Below are positions 1-64,000 of a stretch of 64,000 nucleotides of DNA, piece after piece; position 1 is the first letter of the stretch, and each line of letters opens with the position of its first letter. The notes beneath the pieces were generated by a model. The model was not told the origin of the DNA, searched no databases, and worked only from the letters and a program-made list of their open reading frames with translations. The DNA is from Escherichia phage UPWr_E4, in the sequence record PP418987.1; one strand, 5' to 3'. The position numbers were made by a program, and so were the translations under genes.

Positions 1-2669
1 GCTTGCCCCCAATTATTAGGGACACGACGAATACCAAGATCGACGGCAGTTACAAACCCTTGATTGGTGATTACACTTTTTCCTTTAATAATTGGATAAT
101 AACAATCCTGTGAAACATAACCATGATCGACGAATAATGGAGCTTCTACTCGCCATTGGTTGCCCCAATCACCCGGTTGTCTAGCAATCCATCCAGAACC
201 GTTAATGTGTACACGATCGCGGTTAACGTTAACCATTGCGATATTTTGTGGATTTAGCGAAATCTCACCATTGTTTGTGATATGTACTGCCGCCTGAGTA
301 GCATAGCTATAAAATGCTAGCGAATTATCAGCACCACCCTTACCAATATACCAGTTACCACTCCCGTCTACGTCACCACGAATATGCAAAGCATTACCAG
401 CAGTTGTTGATAATACAATAGAATCACCCGGACGTTTAATAATCAATCTACCTTCGGATTCAACTTCACCAAAGAATTTAGTTTTAATTGCACCAGTCGC
501 TAAAGTACGTTCAGTGGAAAAATGAACGCCTTTGCTGTCTTCTAACTGAATAATGTTATCGCGCGCATTATTACTATCACCCCAATGGTTAAATTTAAAA
601 TAATCTCGTGATCCTAAACGTCCGGCATCAAAAGTCATCAAGCCTTTTATATTAATATCACCACCAAAAAATGCGGTGAGAGAATCGCGTTTTAATTTTA
701 AAACGTTAGCACCACTAGTACCACCCAAAGTAACATCACCAGTTCTTAATTCATAACGGAAAGGTCTATTTGTATTAAAGTTTCCATCTTGATCATTTTC
801 GTCGGTGGAAAGAATATAAAGACTCTCTCCATCATTACGGAAAATTGTACCAAATTTTCCGCCATACATACGGAATGCATTAGATGAGCGGAATTTAACT
901 TCTGTTTTAAATGTGGTAGTGTTATTAAGGTTAACAGTAGAGTTAAAATTGGTAGGAGCACCGAAGTTAACTGCGCCATTAAAATCTTGTTGAGCTGTCC
1001 ATGTGTGGCGACCATCTTCAAGAACAACACGGCGGACTGTGCAAGTTCTATTTCCAGAATTACCGAACACACGAACGACAAAATAACGGTAGTTTGTCTG
1101 GGATACAGTACCGCGCCAAACCTGAACAGTACGCCCTGTGCTAGTGTGTTCACTAGGACCAACGGAAAACATAACCAGGTTTCCGTCAATCGTCCCCCAA
1201 TCCATATTTGCTGGCATGTTCTTTATTTTGTTCAAAGGAACGCTAAACATACTACCAGGAACAAAATCAAAGGTTTGCCAATCTAACTCCGCTAATTGAG
1301 CTTTAATACCACCCATACCCAAAGTAATTGGAAGAGAATAAATCGTCCCCCAATCCATATTTGCTGGCATGTTCTTTATTTTGTTCAAAGGAACGCTAAA
1401 CATACTACCAGGAACAAAATCAAAGGTTTGCCAATCTAACTCCGCTAATTGAGCTTTAATACCACCCATACCCAAAGTAATTGGAAGAGAATAAGATGTA
1501 TATACTTCGTTCCATGCACCCCACGCACCACCAGTATATGCACGCTCAAAAATACGATCGCGAGTAGTTGCACCCGTTCCGGCAGTAGTAAATTTTTGGA
1601 AAATAGCACCACCAGAAGCACGCTGTTTAACTTCCAGCAAACCAACAATAACAGTCGGCAAACCTTCACCGGTAGGACAGTTAATAACGGCATCAGTGCC
1701 TAAAATATTATATAACCCAGGAGTTTTAAAATCATTCAGATCTCCGTCATAGAAAGTCGCCGGTGTGACATTACCGACTTGTTGCCAAGGTCCCCATTTA
1801 GGCGCAGAAGCATCCCACGCAGCAGTAAGACAACGAGTATAAACAACACCAAATCTGGTCGTATATCTCTGTGTGCGAGAATAGTTTCCACCTTCATATA
1901 CTTCTAAAAGTCCTTGAGCGGACGATCCTTCTTCTGGGAAATTTCTGTCAAAGGTAGCAATGGAACTTGAACTATTTCGCCACAAACCAAAGTGTTCAGC
2001 GCCTCCTAGATCATTAAGATCAATTGTTGTTGACAGTGGACGAGTACCAGATTGAATATTTCGCCACACACTCCACGGACCATTTACTCCGTTCCATGTA
2101 GCAGTCAAGGAACGAATATAAACATTTCCGTATCTAGTTGTATATCTCTGAGTACCAGCAAATTGACCGGCCACAAATACTTCTAGCACACCTACAGCAT
2201 TTTCTTCTGGAAATTTATTTGCTGGTTGAGCGTTGGTTGAAGTTGCTTTCGACCAAACTCCAAGACATTCTTCAACAGGCCCATACGTATCTAAATTAGC
2301 ATCAACAGGTAATTCGCCATTATTTTTTATAAACGTTGTGCTATTGACATTTATGTCAGATGGAGTTAGCGTGATATCTTTTGACCCATCAAAGGATATA
2401 CCATTAATTTTTCGTGCTGTTTTTAATTTCGTTGCAGTTGCAGCGTTACCTGTTAAATTTCCAATTATATTTCCATTAACAGTTAAAGAACCATCAATTG
2501 TTCCTCCATATTTTAAACCTAATTCTATAACACTACCTGAGTCATCTTTTGTGAAAATTGTTTTATCTTTTAAGTTTATAGCCAATTCACCTTCGGCTAA
2601 TACTGAAGCAGCAGGACGTTGACCTGCAGTTTTGCTTCTTTTAAATTGTATTTGTTTTAAAGTAGCCAT
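1..2669 (-). CDS. 37: long tail fibre distal subunit gp37, partial (start codon at 2669, 3' end beyond window start)
   Basis: Minus-strand frame open from ATG (revcomp of 2667-2669) to position 1; N-terminus translates [30 protein letters not shown], recognised as T4 gp37; follows 34-35-36 in order. Confidence 0.9.
1188..1493. repeat. perfect tandem duplication, 2 x 153 bp (1188-1340 and 1341-1493), in frame within gene 37
   Basis: The two 153-nt units are identical at every position when read from the sequence; 153 = 51 codons. Confidence 0.95.
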
Positions 2670-2677
2670 AAGTCCTC

Positions 2678-3328
2678 TTAATAATAGCCGAAATCTTGAA
2701 CAGAATCCTTAATTACGATTTGGTCAAATCGTGGAACGTGTGAAGGTTGAGATGCAGGATTCTGTGAAAAAAGGTTTGGCGCAGTTAAATTTCCTGTCAT
2801 AGTGTCTCCAGAGCGTAATACCCTAGAGTTTGCATTTGCTGTAACAGTATTTATTGCTCCATCAACATAATCTTTACGAGTAACATCAGATGCTGCGGAA
2901 GGAGTAGATGTAACAGTTACAGATGGAGCCGTTACAGCTTTGGTAAATGTTGTCAAACCTTCTGGCGTAATCGTAATTTGTCCAGTAGTGATTTCACTAC
3001 CTGCTGGTCTAAAACTAATACCGCCAGAAGAGCCACCAACTACAAGAGTATTACCAGTGCCGCCACCAGAACGAATTCGGATAGGGGTTTCATTATTACT
3101 TAATTGAAGATAACTATTTACCCCGTAATTAATAGTAATTGGACCGGCGTAAGTACCACCATTAGCTTTAGAAACGAAATCGTTATCAGCTGCCTGCGGT
3201 TTATTATATTCTGAATATATTTTAAATGATTTGTAGAGTACATCGTCACCGGCTGAATTCAATGGAAAATTTCCTTGATGCCAAATGACAGATCCACCCA
3301 CAGTTGAACCTACTTTTAAATCAGCCAT
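2678..3328 (-). CDS. 36: long tail fibre subunit gp36
   Basis: 216 aa ORF; N-terminus MADLKVGST and C-terminus [17 protein letters not shown] recognised as T4 gp36; synteny. Confidence 0.85.
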
Positions 3329-3390: not shown

Positions 3391-4506
3391 TTAAAATTCT
3401 CTAAATTCCTGTCCAAACACTTTGCCAGTTTTAGAAGAGGCTTGTGTAGGAAGTACCATTATATCTGGAGGTGAAGCCGATTCACAGACATAATTAACGC
3501 GAATACCGTTGACGCCAAATTCGGCAGGTTTTGAAATGCCGCCATTTCTTGATACTTCAGAAAAACTTAAATTTCTCATGCCGCCTTGACCTGCTTGAGC
3601 AGTTCTTTGTGCATATATCGTAAATCCTACGGCGTTTTCTGGAACAACTACATAGTCTTCTTTTAATTCCCAAGACCCAGCTTGCCCAGTAAACTCAGCT
3701 TGGGTCGAGGAAATATATCCATTTGATGCATCATAAAAACGAATGGATATGTTTGTAGTTCCAAGATCAAGTAAATCAGCATCAGCATATAACTGTGCTT
3801 TAAGATAAAGAACATCACCAGGAATTAAATTATAGTCAGAAAGTTTACTTATAGCAGCTGAAGTTGGCAATCGCGCAATTTCGTTATTAGTTCCACCAAC
3901 TGCTGACATGAATTGCTCGACACTTTCATAAGTTCTTTTTGGAAATCCTGTCGCTCCGACGTCTTCTAAACTATCAAATACAACATCTAAAATAGTTTGA
4001 TAATCATCTGTGCTTTTTCTATTACTTAGTTTAACATGCTCTAATGCAATAGCTCTTTTAGAAGAAGTATAAAAAGCAGCATATGATACGTCAAATCTTG
4101 ACAATACTGAATCTGATGGAAAAACTGAAGTTCCTGCTCCCCTTAACCAAGATACCACTTCAGGAGGAAAATTAACCTTTCCGCTAGTTAATATAGCAAC
4201 AAGTCTATTGTTTGACAAAGAATTCATGAAACTAACAAAAGCGGCAGATGTTGTATTGTTTGAAGCAGAAAAAGCATATGACTTACTATCAACTAATGCT
4301 CCCGTAGAAGGGTCAAAAACTCTTAAATGAAGACCTGCACTAAATGTTTGATTTCCAACGGGATTATCCTGAAATTTAACATATGGCCCCGCAGTAGAAA
4401 GCGGGCAAGAACCCGCTATGCTTATTTTATATCTTACTGAATTGCTTTCCGATAAAAATGGCGTTTGGACATATCCTTGTCCAAACTCTGCCATAAATTT
4501 TTCCAT
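3391..4506 (-). CDS. 35: long tail fibre hinge connector gp35
   Basis: 371 aa ORF between 34 and 36; size and position match T4 gp35. Confidence 0.85.
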   Translation of the reverse strand: MEKFMAEFGQGYVQTPFLSESNSVRYKISIAGSCPLSTAGPYVKFQDNPVGNQTFSAGLHLRVFDPSTGALVDSKSYAFSASNNTTSAAFVSFMNSLSNNRLVAILTSGKVNFPPEVVSWLRGAGTSVFPSDSVLSRFDVSYAAFYTSSKRAIALEHVKLSNRKSTDDYQTILDVVFDSLEDVGATGFPKRTYESVEQFMSAVGGTNNEIARLPTSAAISKLSDYNLIPGDVLYLKAQLYADADLLDLGTTNISIRFYDASNGYISSTQAEFTGQAGSWELKEDYVVVPENAVGFTIYAQRTAQAGQGGMRNLSFSEVSRNGGISKPAEFGVNGIRVNYVCESASPPDIMVLPTQASSKTGKVFGQEFREF

Positions 4507-4514
4507 AATACCTC

Positions 4515-7500
4515 TTATTCAATCCACTCAAATTTAACAGTTTTATTCACTGGGTCAGGAATAATGCGAACATTACCAATTCGCAAGAAATCGCGAATAG
4601 TAAGATTACCTATTATTCCATTATCAGATGGGATCGCTCCTATATCTGAAGGTTGAGGAGGGTTACCTCCGTCAAATACCTGAACAAAACTTGACCAAGA
4701 GTTTTTGGTTTTCTGCCATGTACGTGTCCAGCGAGTGGTACGTGCTTCTGGGGTCGTTGGATAAGTAATCCAATCTTGGTAAAGTGAATCAAGTGTGTTA
4801 CCAAACTGAGTCAATGTACCAGGAGATTTAACTTCTTCACCACGTTCTAAGTATGGAAGTCCAGTCACTTCATTAGTTTTTTCAACCATTTTAAAATAAC
4901 CCGGGAACTGGTTATAAGTGGCTGAATCATTAATATCGATTGACCAGAATCCTACTGTATCAGATGTTGGCGCACGGGTATATAAATCAGAGGTTTTAGT
5001 ACCCTGAGAACGAATTCTCGAGTTAACAGTCAAACCACCCGAACTTATAGTAGCACCTTTTGCAATGATTAAGCTTTCACCAATCGTTACTTGGCCAGAT
5101 GCATTATTAATAGCTAAAGGACGCAATCCATTAAATCCGCCAGTTTGATCACCCGATGCAGTAAGCATAAAATTCGTTACTGACCCGTCATTGCGAACAA
5201 TGAAACCATAATTTCCGCTAATAGCACGGAAAGCATTTGCGCTTCGAGAAATAATTTCACCAGTTGCAGTGACTGAATTACCAAATGTTGCTACACCATT
5301 TGCATTCAATGTTCCTGAAGCATTAACATTTATCGGTGTTACTGTACCGTTGATATTAAATGTTATATTTCCAGCTTTATTACGCTGAGAATAAAAATGA
5401 CTAGACGTTTCATCACTAACTTCAAATACGGTAGAACGTGTTGTGTCTGATTCCCCACTAAACTGATTTCCCCACACTCTGACTGTCATCGTTTGAGCTG
5501 GGTTTGTTCCAGTTTGAGGTCCTTTCTCAAAAATCAGACGAGTTGCCGTTCCAGTATTAGAAATAGTTAATGTACTATTTGCTGAAACTGATCCACCGAA
5601 TGTAGCAGTACTAGATGATACAAGAGGGGCACTCAGATTCGTTTGTTGGGTTAAGGTTAGTGAACCATTAACTGTTTGTGCAATGTCCCTACGAATGAAC
5701 TGGAGCGAATCTAGACCATCTAATAAATTACTATCTACAGCTTTTGCTTTTAATGGCAAATAATTTGCTAATACGCGATTTAATTCATATGGTGATACTG
5801 CATAACCATTTTTCTCATATGATTCTAATGGCTGTGTTGAACCTACCGTATCATTACCAACAAACGTTAATGAACCAGAAGAAGTTTTAACAAACCCTCT
5901 TATCAGAGTAGTTGCTGCCCAAGTTGGTTCACTCTGCACAATCCATTTTAAATTTTTTGGAGATACAGCAGTATTTGCTGACGTTCCAGTCACAGTTTCA
6001 GACTGAGTTGCAACTTTAATAACACCTTCTTGCGATTCGGTAGATTTAGTACCTAAAAGCTTTTTAGGAGTTATTAAAACATTATCTAATGTTCCTGCAG
6101 CAGCTTCAACTTGTGTAGCTACACGAAGTGTACCACGCTGTGTCTCATTTGCTTCAAGAATATTAAGGGTATAATGGTCCCAGAGAGTTCCTGATTCAAC
6201 TAATCCAGATAGAGCAACAACAGAAGTACGATCAGTACTATTAAATCTGGTTTTAATTTTTAATGGTGTAGAGATACGAGTATCGTCGACGCCTGCGTCG
6301 AATTCAACCTGTGTAGCAATTTCAGCTATACCACTTAAACTTTCAGTTGCTCTACGGTCATTTAAAGTTTTAGGAGTGACTGCACGAGTATAGTCAGTTC
6401 CTGTATTAACTTCACTTTGCGTAGCAATTTCAATTAAACCAATTCTTCCATCAGTTGATGTCTTTTTATGTAACGTTTCTGGCGTTACAACCGCATTTGC
6501 CCATCCTTCTTGGCTTTGTCCAGCAATTACTTCACTTTCAACTGCTAAAATTACTGCGCCTTGTTGCGTTGGAGTAGCTTTATACTGATCCAAAGCTTTA
6601 GGTGAAACAACTAAATTATTAGTGTTTTTATTATAAACATTCGTACCATTTAATTCACGACTAGAAGCTGGAGTAGCTCCTGCGGTAGATACAAAAGTTA
6701 CAATACCCGATAATGTTTCAGAACCTTGACGAGCTTGAAGCTTTTTAGGAGTGATGATTGTAGTATCATCAGTACCTGTATTAGTTTCCTGCTGCGTAGC
6801 AATTTCAGCGACACCTCTGCGAGTTTCTGTAGCAGTTCTTTCATTCAGCTTTTTAGGAGTGATGATAAGGTCATCTGCAAAAGAGAATGTGGTGTTCTGA
6901 TTCACTTGAGCAGTAGTTGCTATTCTTGCAATACCTCTGCGAGTTTCTGTAGCAGTACGATTAGCTAACGTTTCTGGAGTAATTGCCAATTCTTTTTGCG
7001 GAGAATTTTCTAAATCAGCATTTGCTTGAGCTTGTGTAGCTAAAGCAATTACGCCTAATCTTGCTCTAGTAGAATTATTTAAAGAATCGACTCTTTCAAC
7101 TGTTGGAACGTTTTGCTGTACAACCCAGTATTTTCCATCAGAATCTTCTATATAAGCAAGTTGCAAAACTGGTACATAATTAGTTTCACCGTTAAAAACT
7201 AATTCTTGAACTGTTACCCATTCAGCTTCAGGCGGATATTCTGAACGTTTTGGGAATTGCAGCAATTGAACTGAAGAAGCAATTTTATCTTCACCAGCAG
7301 CTTTGATTTTAACTGTTTGTCCTTTTCTCATGTAATTCATGGAAATTTTAACAGTATCACCAACAGAAATATCAGTCGGAAGCTGAAGTTCAATTGTTTG
7401 GGTTGTTCCATTATTCGCGCCAAATACCATGACTTCTTCATTTGGACGAATATTTGAATTAGTTGTTATAATGCGTAAACGTGCTTTACTATCCCCGTCA

Positions 7501-8384
7501 AACAATCTCCACAATTTCTCATTATCGTCAAACATCAAGAAACCGTCAATCGATGTACGGCCTTCAATGGAATGAGTTCCAACTTCTTGTACTGAAGTCG
7601 TTTCATCGTATGTAGTAACAATTGTATGATAAAGTGGATTCAGTTTATCTAAATCAACGAAATTAATAATATCGCCATGATTAGCAAATCTCGGAAGTTT
7701 AACATTAATTGGTGCAGCAGAAGTAAATCTACGTACGATAAAATCATTAGATTGTGCTTGATATGCAGTCGATGGAGTAACAATCGCAGCTTCTCTGCTA
7801 TAATCAGCAATATACATTTGCCACAAACGATTATTAAAAATGAATACCATCTGTGACTTTGGATGAGTCATTAAAACTGAACGTACCTGTTCACCTCTAA
7901 AATTGACAATACTCTGATTTGAAGAATTTATTTTAACCTGATTTATGCCAGGTTTTCCACCGATATCTTGAATTATTACGGTTTCTCCATCAAGCGGAGA
8001 AGGTGGTAAAGTAAACTCAATGTCATTGCCAACTGATGTATCTACTGAAATTGCTTCTCCGGATTTTAATTGATATGGTCCAGATGATACAGTTGTATAT
8101 ACGGCATCAGTACGTAATGCTTTCCAACGAATTCTATTAAAATTTCCAGCAGGTTTTGGAATATTATCCGTTGCTGCCCAAAAACGATTATTATAAATGA
8201 TTACAAAATCTTTTAAATATCCACGAGTTGGATCATATTGCTGAACTGTGTTTTCTTGAATTAAGTAATCAACGTTAACACCGTCAGTTCCTACGGTACG
8301 ATCAGCTAAAGCTACGTTGATTATTTTATCGCCACCTGCGTCCAGACCATCTTCTGCTCTGAACTTTCTTTTAATCTCGGCCAT
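4515..8384 (-). CDS. 34: long tail fibre proximal subunit gp34
   Basis: 1289 aa ORF (same length as T4 gp34) with repeated fibre motifs; synteny. Confidence 0.9.
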   Translation of the reverse strand: MAEIKRKFRAEDGLDAGGDKIINVALADRTVGTDGVNVDYLIQENTVQQYDPTRGYLKDFVIIYNNRFWAATDNIPKPAGNFNRIRWKALRTDAVYTTVSSGPYQLKSGEAISVDTSVGNDIEFTLPPSPLDGETVIIQDIGGKPGINQVKINSSNQSIVNFRGEQVRSVLMTHPKSQMVFIFNNRLWQMYIADYSREAAIVTPSTAYQAQSNDFIVRRFTSAAPINVKLPRFANHGDIINFVDLDKLNPLYHTIVTTYDETTSVQEVGTHSIEGRTSIDGFLMFDDNEKLWRLFDGDSKARLRIITTNSNIRPNEEVMVFGANNGTTQTIELQLPTDISVGDTVKISMNYMRKGQTVKIKAAGEDKIASSVQLLQFPKRSEYPPEAEWVTVQELVFNGETNYVPVLQLAYIEDSDGKYWVVQQNVPTVERVDSLNNSTRARLGVIALATQAQANADLENSPQKELAITPETLANRTATETRRGIARIATTAQVNQNTTFSFADDLIITPKKLNERTATETRRGVAEIATQQETNTGTDDTTIITPKKLQARQGSETLSGIVTFVSTAGATPASSRELNGTNVYNKNTNNLVVSPKALDQYKATPTQQGAVILAVESEVIAGQSQEGWANAVVTPETLHKKTSTDGRIGLIEIATQSEVNTGTDYTRAVTPKTLNDRRATESLSGIAEIATQVEFDAGVDDTRISTPLKIKTRFNSTDRTSVVALSGLVESGTLWDHYTLNILEANETQRGTLRVATQVEAAAGTLDNVLITPKKLLGTKSTESQEGVIKVATQSETVTGTSANTAVSPKNLKWIVQSEPTWAATTLIRGFVKTSSGSLTFVGNDTVGSTQPLESYEKNGYAVSPYELNRVLANYLPLKAKAVDSNLLDGLDSLQFIRRDIAQTVNGSLTLTQQTNLSAPLVSSSTATFGGSVSANSTLTISNTGTATRLIFEKGPQTGTNPAQTMTVRVWGNQFSGESDTTRSTVFEVSDETSSHFYSQRNKAGNITFNINGTVTPINVNASGTLNANGVATFGNSVTATGEIISRSANAFRAISGNYGFIVRNDGSVTNFMLTASGDQTGGFNGLRPLAINNASGQVTIGESLIIAKGATISSGGLTVNSRIRSQGTKTSDLYTRAPTSDTVGFWSIDINDSATYNQFPGYFKMVEKTNEVTGLPYLERGEEVKSPGTLTQFGNTLDSLYQDWITYPTTPEARTTRWTRTWQKTKNSWSSFVQVFDGGNPPQPSDIGAIPSDNGIIGNLTIRDFLRIGNVRIIPDPVNKTVKFEWIE

Positions 8385-13439: not shown

Positions 13440-13795
13440 ATGTCTGACATTCGTGTAGCTGGAATTGCTCGAGTAAGTATTCGTTGCCAACTTAAAACTG
13501 CACCTGGGACGGCTTATATTAATTTATCACACGACCTATGTTCTAGTGAAAGACAGTTAACAGGTGTAATTACATTTTACGCTGGATTTGGCGGAAACGA
13601 ATTTACTGTAGGCGAATTTGTTGGCTGTAAATTAAAAGTTCAGAAGAACGTATTAGAACTTTTTAATGACCTTTACGATGATAGTGATGAAGTTTTTGAT
13701 GAAATCGCACAAGCAGTTAACAGAGGAATGGTAACTTTAGTTAAAATGATTAAAGATAGCGGATTTGCTTCTGGCCCCTTTCAGTGGGAGGTAAT

Positions 13796-13799
<4 letters not shown>
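13440..13799 (+). CDS. small early protein, function unknown
   Basis: 119 aa ORF, ATG with RBS. Confidence 0.55.
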
Positions 13800-16988: not shown

Positions 16989-17268
16989 ATACAAATCCGA
17001 CTTTGATGTGAATATTCACCGTGGTACATTTTGGGGAAATTACGTCGGTAAAGATGCTGGCAGCCGGGAGGCTGCCATTGAATTATTCAAAAAAGATTTT
17101 ATACGTCGAATTAAATCCGGAGAAATAACTAAAGCACATTTAGAGCCTTTACGTGGAATGAGGCTAGGATGCACATGTAAACCAAAGCCGTGTCATGGTG
17201 ATATAATAGCTCATATAGTTAACCGACTGTTTAAAGACGATTTTCAAGTTGAGGACTTATGCAATTAA
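16942..17268 (+). CDS. small protein (nrdA.2-like), function unknown
   Basis: 108 aa ORF overlapping its neighbours. Confidence 0.55.
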
Positions 17269-22371: not shown

Positions 22372-22425
22372 GTTTACAAGTCCCTCGTGTTGTGTTATAG
22401 TAGTCTTACTGACATAACATGAGGA
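22372..22425 (+). promoter_or_regulatory. 54 bp promoter/stop/RBS cassette, copy 1 (identical to 38327-38380)
   Basis: GTTTACA, 17 nt, TATAGT, then stop codons in all three frames and a GAGGA RBS; exact second copy elsewhere in the window. Confidence 0.6.
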
Positions 22426-36269: not shown

Positions 36270-38327
36270 ATGGAACTTATTACAGAATTATTTGACGGCG
36301 CTTCGGCGCCGGTTGTTAACTTAAATCCTAAGCATAAAATACCACAAATTTTTGCTATTCAAGCCGGCGAAGAAAGCGTGCTTCCTGGATTTAGATTTTG
36401 TACATACACCTCTGGTGGTGATACGAATAAAAACGTTAAGCCAGGCGATAAAATGATGCATATCGTAATGATAGGTGTTAATGAGAAACTATCATTAGTT
36501 AAGCTTAAAAACTTGGGTGGAAATCCAATTGGTGTCATTAATGCCGTTTTTGATACTGCTCTTCAAACAATGAAACAGTATAAAATCGACGCATGCCTAT
36601 TCCGCGTACTAAAAAGTAAAACAAATGGCGCAGCTCGTCAAATGCAAGTTATTGCTGACCGTTTAGTACGTACTAAAGGAGCAGGTCGATATGTTCTTTT
36701 AAAGGAAATCTGGGACTATGATAAGAAATATGCATATATTATGGTTTACCGTAAAAATGCCAATTTAGAAGACATTCCAGGTGTACCTCCTATTTCAACT
36801 GAGTTATTCACAAAAGTTGAATCAAAGGTCGGTGATGTTTATGTAGACGTTAAAACAGGAAATGCTGTTCCTAAAGCTGTCGCTGTTGCTGCTTCTATTG
36901 CTTTAGAAAATGATAAGCGCACGGACCAAGCTGTTATTCAGAAAACTAAAATCAGTCGTCGATTAGCAGCACAAGCTCAATATTCTACTGTTGATGCTTC
37001 ACTTCAGGGTGATAGCTTTGCTGCCAAGAAATATCAAGAGTTTGAATCTAAAGTTCCGGTATATAAAGCAGAAGGACCAATGAACTCTGGCGTTATCCAG
37101 ATTGGTTCAAACTTCAGCAAAGGAGCTATCGGTGGTATGAGAAGTGCTTCTCGTTTTAAATCTAGCGATTATGAACTAGAAAGCTTCCGAAATCATATTG
37201 CATTGGCCCATGCACGTTTACGTGATCCATCTATCAAGTTGCAGAGCGATATAACATATCAAGGTTCTCAAGAATATTTAAAGAATAAAGAATTCTTTGA
37301 TTATAAAACTGATAAAATTTTAAGCGATCTTGCTGACATTAATATTTCTAATAGCTTTGATGTTATTAAGAAAATTATCAATGATTTGGTTAAAGGTTCT
37401 AAAGCCACGCCAGATGAAAAGACAGCTATTATTCAATTTGTAATGAATGGCATTTATAAATTGATTAATGAATCTGCTGCCCAGGCATATGAATACGCAA
37501 GCACCGAAGTAGCTCCAAAAGGACTGACTCAGGCTGAATCTGATGTAATTGAAGATTATTGTGCAGATTCATATGTTGAAATGAACTCGTTCCTTTTGGG
37601 TAAACCAGATTCTACCCGTGAAGAATACATGGAACGAGCTATTAAGCACATCGAGACGTTAGATTCTGCCTTTGCCAAAGGATCAGTTCTTCCTCCAGGA
37701 ACTACACTTTACCGTGGGCAAGAAGTTACCTTTAAAACTTTGCGTCATAACATTGAAAATAAAATGTTCTATTTCAAGAACTTCGTATCCACATCGCTTA
37801 AACCAAATATCTTCGGTGAGCATGGTAAAAACTATATGGCTCTAGATGATTCTGGCGCAGTATTTTCTGGCGAAGGAGAAGGTTCCGTTGATACAGAAGA
37901 TTTGATGCATATGGGTAGTCATTCTACATATGCTAATGAAGATGCTGAAACTAGCGTGGGTATGGTAATTAAAGGAGCTGAGCGAATCAAAGTTATCGTT
38001 CCAGGTCATTTATCAGGATTTCCATCAGAAGCTGAAGTTATTCTACCACGTGGAATTTTACTGAAGATTAATAAAGTAAGTACGTACTTTATGAAAGAAA
38101 CTGCTTATAACAAGTATCTAATCGAAGGTACAATCGTTCCTCCTTCTGAACAATTAGAAGAATCAGTATATGATGGAGACCATCTAATGGAAACTGGTGA
38201 AGTTCGTCCAATGGCTGGATTTAATCAATTCCTTGTAGAAGAATCAAAAGAAGAGGAAAATGAAGTTTCTCAAATCTTGGCTTCTTTGGTTAACATCAAC
38301 GGAATGTCTAAAAAGTTCAAAATGTAG
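36270..38327 (+). CDS. Alt-family ADP-ribosyltransferase paralog, copy B
   Basis: 685 aa; same N-terminus MELITELFD, roughly 60-65 percent identical to copy A over the first ~230 aa by eye, divergent middle, conserved R-S-E signature (LYRGQ, FVSTSL, EVILPRG). Confidence 0.8.
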   Translation: MELITELFDGASAPVVNLNPKHKIPQIFAIQAGEESVLPGFRFCTYTSGGDTNKNVKPGDKMMHIVMIGVNEKLSLVKLKNLGGNPIGVINAVFDTALQTMKQYKIDACLFRVLKSKTNGAARQMQVIADRLVRTKGAGRYVLLKEIWDYDKKYAYIMVYRKNANLEDIPGVPPISTELFTKVESKVGDVYVDVKTGNAVPKAVAVAASIALENDKRTDQAVIQKTKISRRLAAQAQYSTVDASLQGDSFAAKKYQEFESKVPVYKAEGPMNSGVIQIGSNFSKGAIGGMRSASRFKSSDYELESFRNHIALAHARLRDPSIKLQSDITYQGSQEYLKNKEFFDYKTDKILSDLADINISNSFDVIKKIINDLVKGSKATPDEKTAIIQFVMNGIYKLINESAAQAYEYASTEVAPKGLTQAESDVIEDYCADSYVEMNSFLLGKPDSTREEYMERAIKHIETLDSAFAKGSVLPPGTTLYRGQEVTFKTLRHNIENKMFYFKNFVSTSLKPNIFGEHGKNYMALDDSGAVFSGEGEGSVDTEDLMHMGSHSTYANEDAETSVGMVIKGAERIKVIVPGHLSGFPSEAEVILPRGILLKINKVSTYFMKETAYNKYLIEGTIVPPSEQLEESVYDGDHLMETGEVRPMAGFNQFLVEESKEEENEVSQILASLVNINGMSKKFKM

Positions 38328-38380
38328 TTTACAAGTCCCTCGTGTTGTGTTATAGTAGTCTTACTGACATAACATGAGGA
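38327..38380 (+). promoter_or_regulatory. 54 bp promoter/stop/RBS cassette, copy 2 (identical to 22372-22425)
   Basis: Exact 54/54 match to the cassette upstream of alc. Confidence 0.6.
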
Positions 38381-49484: not shown

Positions 49485-50903
49485 ATGACTTTTACAGTTG
49501 ATATAACTCCTAAAACACCGACAGGGGTTATTGATGAAACTAAGCAGTTTACTGCTACACCCAGTGGTGAAACTGGAGGCGGAACTATTACATATGCTTG
49601 GACTGTAGATGATGCTCCACAAGATGGAGCTGAAGCAACTTTTGATTATGTATTAAAAGGACCTGCTGGACAAAAGACTATTAAAGTAGTTGCAACAAAT
49701 ACAGTTCCAGATACTGATGCTGAAACAGCAGAAGCTACTACAACTATCACAGTTCAAAATAAGACACAAACAACTACTTTAGCTGTAACTCCTGGTAGCC
49801 CTGATGCTGGAGTGATTGGAACTCCAATTGAATTTACCGCTGCCTTAGCTTCACAGCCATCAGGTGCAAACGCTACGTATCAATGGCACGTTGACGGTTC
49901 TCCTGTAGACGAAGCAACTGACGCTACATTCAATTACACTCCTGACACAAGCGGAGTTAAAAAAATCAAGTGTGTAGCTCAAGTAACTGCGGCAGATTAT
50001 GATGCACTAAGCGTTACTTCTAATGAAGTATCATTGACTGTTAATAAAAAGACGCAGACGACTACCTTGGCAGTAACTCCTGATAGTCCTCCAGCTGGAG
50101 TGATTGGAACAGCCGTTGAATTTACTGCTGCCTTAGCTTCTCAACCTGATGGGGCATCTGCTACGTATCAGTGGTATGTAGATGATTCACAAGTTGGTGG
50201 AGAAACTAACTCTACATTTAGCTATACTCCAACTACAAGTGGAGTAAAAAGAATTAAATGCGTAGCCCAAGTAACTGCTGAAAATTACAATGAAAAGGAA
50301 GTTACTTCTAATGAAGTATCATTGACAGTTAATAAGAAGACAATGAATCCACAGGTTACATTGACTCCTCCTTCTATTAATGTTCAGCAAGATGCTTCGG
50401 CTACATTTACGGCTAATGTTACGGGTGCTCCAGAAGAAGCACAAATTACTTACTCATGGAAGAAAGATTCTTCTCCTGTAGAAGGGTCAACTAACGTATA
50501 TACTGTCGATACCTCATCTGTTGGAAGTCAAACTATTGAAGTTACTGCTGTCGTTACTGCAACTGATTACGATAGCAAAACTATTACAGCAGAAGGTCAA
50601 GTTCAGGTAACTGATAAAGTTGCTCCAGAACCAGAAGGTGAATTGCCTTATGTTCATCCTCTTCCACATCGTACTTCAGCTTATATCTGGTGCGGTTGGT
50701 GGGTTATGGATGAAATCCAAAAAATGACCGAAGAAGGTAAAGATTGGAAAACTGAAGATCCAGACAGTAAATACTACCTGCATCGTTACACTCTTCAGAA
50801 GATGATGAAAGACTATCCAGAAGTTGATGTTCAAGAATCACGCAATGGATACATCATTCATAAAACTGCTTTAGAAACTGGTATCATCTATACCTATCCA
50901 TAA
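49485..50903 (+). CDS. hoc: Hoc, outer capsid decoration protein with Ig-like domains (472 aa)
   Basis: MTFTVDITPKTPTGVIDETKQF..., tandem Ig-like modules and conserved capsid-binding C-terminus ...YIWCGWWVMDEIQKM.... Confidence 0.85.
   Translation: MTFTVDITPKTPTGVIDETKQFTATPSGETGGGTITYAWTVDDAPQDGAEATFDYVLKGPAGQKTIKVVATNTVPDTDAETAEATTTITVQNKTQTTTLAVTPGSPDAGVIGTPIEFTAALASQPSGANATYQWHVDGSPVDEATDATFNYTPDTSGVKKIKCVAQVTAADYDALSVTSNEVSLTVNKKTQTTTLAVTPDSPPAGVIGTAVEFTAALASQPDGASATYQWYVDDSQVGGETNSTFSYTPTTSGVKRIKCVAQVTAENYNEKEVTSNEVSLTVNKKTMNPQVTLTPPSINVQQDASATFTANVTGAPEEAQITYSWKKDSSPVEGSTNVYTVDTSSVGSQTIEVTAVVTATDYDSKTITAEGQVQVTDKVAPEPEGELPYVHPLPHRTSAYIWCGWWVMDEIQKMTEEGKDWKTEDPDSKYYLHRYTLQKMMKDYPEVDVQESRNGYIIHKTALETGIIYTYP
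49770..50342 (+). repeat. tandem diverged repeat (2 x about 288 bp) encoding two closely related Ig-like domains of Hoc
   Basis: TTTLAVTPGSPDAGVIGTPIEFTAALASQP... versus TTTLAVTPDSPPAGVIGTAVEFTAALASQP..., about 75 percent amino acid identity by eye. Confidence 0.6.

Positions 50904-61888: not shown

Positions 61889-64000
<2,112 letters not shown>

Follow-up and report, generated by a model that had tools for sequence, protein, structure and literature searches.

[quoted passage not shown] The question was raised by a preliminary description of a stretch of 64,000 nucleotides from record PP418987.1 (hereafter the window), in which two identical consecutive units were located within the gp37 reading frame and read as a possible adaptive adhesin variant or, alternatively, as an assembly artefact. 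UPWr_E4 is described as a Tequatrovirus (PMC12427302).

The repeated unit

Positions 1188-1340 and 1341-1493 of the window match at all 153 bases by direct string comparison, and Tandem Repeats Finder returned a single array (1188-1494, period 153, 2.0 copies, 100% matches, no indels, score 614); besides 1188-1493, a second perfect tandem duplication was not found within the 64-kb window. An exact repeat of 153 bases cannot have originated by chance. Identity continues for one base past the units (A at 1494), so that the ends of the repeat are essentially without microhomology. On the minus strand, 889 codons are open from the ATG at 2669 to beyond the window start; gene 37 occupies positions 1-2669 with these 5' codons, and ≈ 469 bp of its 3' end lie outside the window. 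Translation places the 51-residue peptide at gp37 residues 393-443 and again at 444-494. The coordinates, frame, peptide and residue numbers of the preliminary description were thus borne out, and its argument that perfect identity points to a very recent event is accepted, provided that the duplication is real.

The copy translated second (1188-1340, minus strand, residues 444-494) adjoins the C-terminal half of the domain to which it belongs, and the single copy of the relatives aligns here in MAFFT. The copy translated first (1341-1493, minus strand, residues 393-443), an extra orphan half-domain with its linker, constitutes a 51-residue insertion with respect to every homologue aligned. 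The novel junction lies between 1340 and 1341, where the unit end GAGAATA is joined to the unit start AATCGTCC; the junction sequence, with unit end GGAAGAGAATA followed by unit start AATCGTCCCCC, is the sole sequence that tells two copies from one.

Gene 37 and its surroundings

The identity of the repeat-bearing gene as gene 37 is indicated by the genes for gp36 (2678-3328), gp35 (3391-4506) and gp34 (4515-8384), which come next to it on the minus strand; all three are intact, and the exact proteins gp36 and gp34 were found in other phage genomes. The gp37 region agrees at 99.6-99.8% of its positions with that of phage fFiEco06, where a gp37 of 994 aa, annotated as long tail fibre distal subunit, is followed by the gp38 adhesin. 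Relatives at 99% identity carry PF13884 (Peptidase_S74) at the C-terminus of gp37 and an adjoining gene of the GP38 family, and NCBI names the close homologues 'pyocin knob domain-containing S74 family peptidase'. Judged by sequence, the gp37 of the window is predicted to be of the T6 type, with an S74 peptidase C-terminus, and to be capped by a separate gp38 adhesin. Internal repeat alignment revealed three clear pyocin-knob-like repeats (k1-k3), the third of which (1494-1772, minus strand, ≈ residues 300-392) ends in ...AWNEVYTS directly before the duplicated unit. Residues 493-650 are homologous to T4 gp34 928-1103, with a Pfam Gp34_trimer match at residues 573-638. The duplication, at residues 393-494 of ≈ 1045, is therefore situated in the middle of the shaft, upstream of the gp34-like part and well away from the receptor-binding region.

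Several other features of the window were recorded. An ORF of 119 aa at 13440-13799 falls in a segment of ≈ 350 bp that is missing from phage CHD2BS1; at the matching position phage PYPS2T has a gene of 119 aa with PF23905 (DUF7247), and by sequence comparison a small early gene with an ordinary presence/absence polymorphism best describes this difference. A perfect direct repeat of 54 nt, GTTTACAAGTCCCTCGTGTTGTGTTATAGTAGTCTTACTGACATAACATGAGGA, occurs at 22372-22425 and, 16 kb away, at 38327-38380; each copy ends in a Shine-Dalgarno-like AGGA directly upstream of an ATG, and the repeat has the appearance of a T4-type early promoter with its leader, duplicated so as to precede two different genes. 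A diverged tandem repeat (288-bp period, 2.1 copies, 76% identity) at 49749-50342 presumably codes for repeated Ig-like domains of a hoc-like head decoration protein. The window differs in length from CHD2BS1 by one base at 17089, a position that coordinate arithmetic assigns to a small hypothetical CDS of CHD2BS1 (locus L002 19285-19500); either a natural frameshift or an error in base calling could account for this difference.

The 51 residues correspond to half of a knob-like domain

A HMMER search of 1.84 billion representatives yielded 150 diverse fibre proteins, which were searched again by phmmer and jackhmmer with two separate queries, the repeated unit (N-half) and the following 62 residues (C-half). 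In the window the C-terminal half of the domain is present once (1023-1187, minus strand, residues 495-549, DGNLVMFSV...RTCTVRRVV). In 51 diverse fibre proteins, the C-half directly followed the N-half at all occurrences but one in the jackhmmer search, the single exception being one N-half in P0169 behind which a C-half was not detected, and an arrangement with the N-half directly repeated (N-N-C) was never encountered in these 51 proteins. Natural repeats comprise the whole N+C block, with a period of ≈ 115-130 aa and diverged copies; P0137 and P0154 have three copies of the module, and two are present in each of P0129, P0132, P0135, P0139, P0168, P0170, P0173, P0181 and P0267. When 32 modules were aligned, both halves proved to be conserved, and the right end of the duplication fell in the most length-variable stretch.

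In the AlphaFold model, N-half and C-half together form one compact domain (pLDDT 87-96); a prediction for residues 290-640, based on a shallow set of homologues of 88-98% identity, was uninformative (pLDDT 45). The strict coupling of the two halves, together with the single modelled domain, shows that the 51 aa comprise a linker and the initial ≈ 38 aa of a compact knob-like domain of ≈ 92-105 aa, and that they do not represent a structural module that simply lengthens the fibre. The left end of the repeat coincides exactly with the boundary between knob 3 and this domain, and the right end lies in a variable surface loop. A PDB alignment starting at residue 493, the gp34 structure paper and some representative matches starting near the end of the unit had suggested an independent connector between knob 3 and a gp34-like triple β-helix; this reading of the unit was rejected on the N-C coupling seen by jackhmmer and the single domain seen by AlphaFold.

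As a side result, a widespread knob-like fibre module of ≈ 105 aa without a Pfam model was delineated. It corresponds to window positions 1023-1340 (gp37 residues 444-549) and is found in proteins within the series P0125-P0267, with the consensus LG.GIG...(14 residues)...NMTN.P.G...NYR.Y.VR..G..GSRTF.VRQ; at least 51 diverse representative tail-fibre proteins contain one to three diverged tandem copies. Its confident AlphaFold model resembles domains of receptor-binding proteins of staphylococcal phages and of pyocin fibres.

Relatives carry a single copy

Window positions 900-1800 were matched by 188 phage records. Their spans, checked on the best 40 rows plus 60 rows spread over the ranking, fall short of the query by 153 bp, or by 171 bp in records with an additional deletion of 18 bp. 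With a query of 80 nt centred on the junction, no phage record gave a coverage above 51%, and neither the junction 33-mer nor the 24-mer was found in IMG/VR, JGI metagenome contigs or GTDB genomes. The 120 closest protein clusters (NCBI, ENA, JGI, Logan) have lengths of 986-995 aa and contain exactly one unit motif apiece, and the complete genomes of E. coli contain distant single-copy prophage versions only. Homology searches with short protein queries gave 3 matches in one case and 1 in another. An indel of 6 aa distinguishes relatives with a gp37 of 988 aa from those with 994 aa; the possibility that it maps to the loop at the junction was dismissed, as it sits at residues 578-583.

The closest sequence found is the Logan contig ERR11594214_1778 (50 kb), which comes from an independent public read set, is 99.95% identical and encodes a single-copy gp37 of 994 aa. 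It aligns without gaps to the window collapsed to one copy and differs from it at 3 positions over 6 kb and at 7 over 12 kb; the collapsed window is likewise gap-free against fFiEco06 (99.2-99.8% identity), and gp37 returns to its canonical 994 aa. Alignment to gene 37 of reference phages had been proposed in the preliminary description as a means of deciding whether a single copy is ancestral, and all relatives examined were found to have one. In the phage records, protein clusters and contig collections searched, the two-copy arrangement was found in no other sequence, and no report of a 153-bp or tandem gp37 duplication was found in the literature.

Sibling records with perfect duplications

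An exact-protein look-up showed that the gp34 protein of phage UPWr_E2 (PP418986.1) is identical to that of the window. The two closely related genomes are 98.7% identical, and that of UPWr_E2 too has a repeat in gp37, a perfect tandem duplication of 349 bp at record positions 64387-65084 (equivalent to window 422-768), ≈ 420 bp from the position of the window's repeat, with the identity likewise running on for one base. The length of 349 bp is not a multiple of 3; there is a stop codon at the junction, the gp37 annotation is split into two CDS (699 aa and 406 aa), and removal of one copy gives a gp37 of 995 aa. UPWr_E2 lyses 46% of 142 APEC strains (PMC12427302). Since the phage is infective and yet the duplication breaks the frame of gp37, the duplication in its deposited 'complete genome' is almost certainly an assembly error. 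The whole genome of 168 kb contains exactly one perfect tandem duplication, and the record begins at a CDS start and must therefore have been rotated; a terminal overlap was not found in the rebuilt UPWr_E2 genome.

Similarly, UPWr_E1 (PP418985.1) contains exactly one perfect tandem duplication in its whole genome, 273 bp long and located at the tail tube/tail sheath junction (record 124408-124953), and this record also begins at a CDS start. Here the duplication creates a spurious CDS (record 124512-124619) for a 35-aa fragment of the 'tail sheath protein'. No perfect tandem duplication was present in the tail-fibre regions (≈ 20 kb each) of 12 other genomes. Position 1 of the window corresponds to UPWr_E2 base 63966, and the window fits bases 64001-128000 of a record laid out like that of UPWr_E2, within 35 bp. 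The taxids of UPWr_E1, E2 and E4 follow directly upon one another, as do the accessions of E1 and E2; from the layout, the identical gp34 and the taxids we infer that the window comes from the same GenBank submission batch as UPWr_E1 and UPWr_E2.

Origin of the repeat

T-even genomes are circularly permuted, so that an assembler gives a linear contig with both ends repeating the same stretch. With a probability of roughly 0.7, the two copies in the window are one copy written twice, as an end overlap left untrimmed after such a genome had been closed and rotated. The linear contig of the permuted genome would have ended in the same stretch at both termini; on rotation to the conventional start, with the overlap untrimmed, this stretch would have come to stand twice in succession, as a perfect tandem repeat inside the record at the point where the contig ends had been. 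The phage would then possess an ordinary T6-type gp37 of 994 aa, and the 51-aa repeat would be absent from the virion. The occurrence of one perfect duplication, of variable length and internal in a rotated record, in each of the whole genomes of UPWr_E2 and UPWr_E1, as in the 64 kb of the window, resembles an untrimmed end overlap; the exact step at which the error was produced is inferred.

The artefact, which the preliminary description had mentioned as its alternative, is favoured by the single-copy relatives and by UPWr_E2 and UPWr_E1, records apparently of the same batch, each of which has one lone perfect duplication. The copies in the window are 100% identical with a microhomology of 1 bp, and their collapse restores both perfect colinearity with the nearest relatives and the canonical length of gp37. 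On the other hand, the length of the repeat is a multiple of three, for which the chance under an artefact is 1 in 3, and k-mer overlaps do not usually measure 153 bp. Its ends coincide with a domain boundary and a variable surface loop, where a real insertion would be tolerable, and gp37 is a gene with known real host-range duplications. Moreover, gp37 accounts for ≈ 2% of the genome, such that a closure point there is unexpected unless breaks are biased to this gene. That both related genomes have their repeat in gp37 suggests that the contig break is non-random, and it may be conjectured that its position follows a heterogeneity of the sequence or a coverage feature in the hypervariable gp37. 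Of two further assembly scenarios, a chimera joining two gp37 variants that had been assembled together was rejected, as the relatedness to the closest genomes is unchanged across the unit, and a generally error-prone (long-read) assembly found no support, as the window differs from CHD2BS1 by only a handful of small indels over 36 kb.

A real and very recent duplication is, taken overall, doubtful. If the repeat were physically present, which is rather unlikely, a distal fibre of the T6 type would assemble and work with an orphan half-domain (51 aa per chain, 153 aa per trimer) between knob 3 and the next domain, as a fresh, undiverged variant that recombination has yet to eliminate and that was possibly selected for the reach or flexibility of the fibre. 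It is unlikely that homology-free illegitimate recombination or replication slippage doubled the 153 bp in gene 37 very recently and that the result is tolerated. The C-half would then pair with one N-half, and in each of the three chains the other 51 aa would remain as a floppy linker or as an insert in a surface loop, with a small effect on infection and with a repeat that homologous recombination has yet to remove. In favour of such an event, the repeat is in frame in an essential gene, its left boundary lies between knob 3 and the domain, and its right boundary falls in the most length-variable loop of the latter. The window is otherwise a clean assembly with few indels relative to its relatives and has no mosaic junction at the site, and T-even phages are known for tandem duplications in gene 37 (Tetart 1996, as reported in citing papers). 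Yet an orphan half-domain is without precedent among 51 diverse homologues, the 99.95% identical relative and all others have a single copy, and two records, apparently of the same batch, contain similar perfect duplications, one of which is incompatible with viability.

Still less can be said for a duplication that is both real and adaptive, with the additional 51 aa per chain altering how long or how flexible the distal half-fibre is and hence adsorption or host range, for example by reaching through O-antigen or capsule, and with selection keeping an unstable repeat. This would be very improbable. [quoted passage not shown] However, receptor recognition in this type of phage resides in gp38 and not in this part of gp37, half a domain adds no folded module, and in the collections searched no other isolate or metagenome carries the duplication; the evidence for an artefact counts here too. 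The adaptive-adhesin interpretation of the preliminary description thus fares poorly, as the analogy with T4 fails for a half-domain in the middle of the shaft of a T6-type gp37 and the relatives have one copy.

Should the favoured reading, an untrimmed end overlap, be correct, the deposited genome and at least the UPWr_E2 and UPWr_E1 records probably need correction, failing which a spurious gp37 variant of 1045 aa would find its way into protein databases and into the sets used to predict host range. Should the duplication be real, a trimeric tail fibre would tolerate the insertion of half a domain in its shaft, and the window would show, as is rarely possible, a duplication that has only just arisen in a recombination-proficient phage, with a bearing on the origin of fibre modules and on the engineering of fibre length.

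Comparison with known systems

The duplications in gene 37 of T4 are the obvious precedent. The statement of the preliminary description that they alter or expand host range is borne out by several papers, in which Tetart et al. 1996 (J Mol Biol 258:726) is cited as the source for an extension of the host range of T4 to Yersinia by duplications in gene 37. From its title and the citing papers, the work of Tetart, Repoila, Monod & Krisch (1996) concerns a small domain duplicated in the C-terminal adhesin of T4-type gp37; according to citing papers, the adhesin function of T4 resides in a C-terminal extension of gp37, while phages of the T2/T6 type cap gp37 with gp38. [quoted passage not shown] The T4 duplications are located in the C-terminal adhesin, whereas that of the window is found mid-shaft at residues 393-494, with a separate gp38 adhesin; the former copy a small domain, as far as the 1996 title and the citing papers tell, and the latter a half-domain. 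A T6-type gp37 with a separate gp38 and a mid-shaft site mean that the host-range analogy with T4 does not transfer. The end points of the T4 duplications are reportedly placed in short conserved motifs that give homology for recombination, unlike those of the window's repeat with its microhomology of 1 bp only. As far as sequence features go, the repeat would fall outside the class of T4 host-range duplications on every feature testable here.

The natural tandem arrays of the ≈ 105-aa fibre module in tail fibres of phages and prophages, such as P0129, P0137, P0154 and P0173, have the module in common with the window, but in these arrays the whole module is repeated in diverged copies, whereas in the window only its first 51 aa are repeated, in identical copies. 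An untrimmed terminal overlap differs from the window's repeat in that 153 bp is unusual as a k-mer size and in that the repeat keeps the frame and is located within gp37; the likeness consists in the identical copies, the presence of one repeat in the available sequence, and a collapse that restores both the gene and the colinearity.
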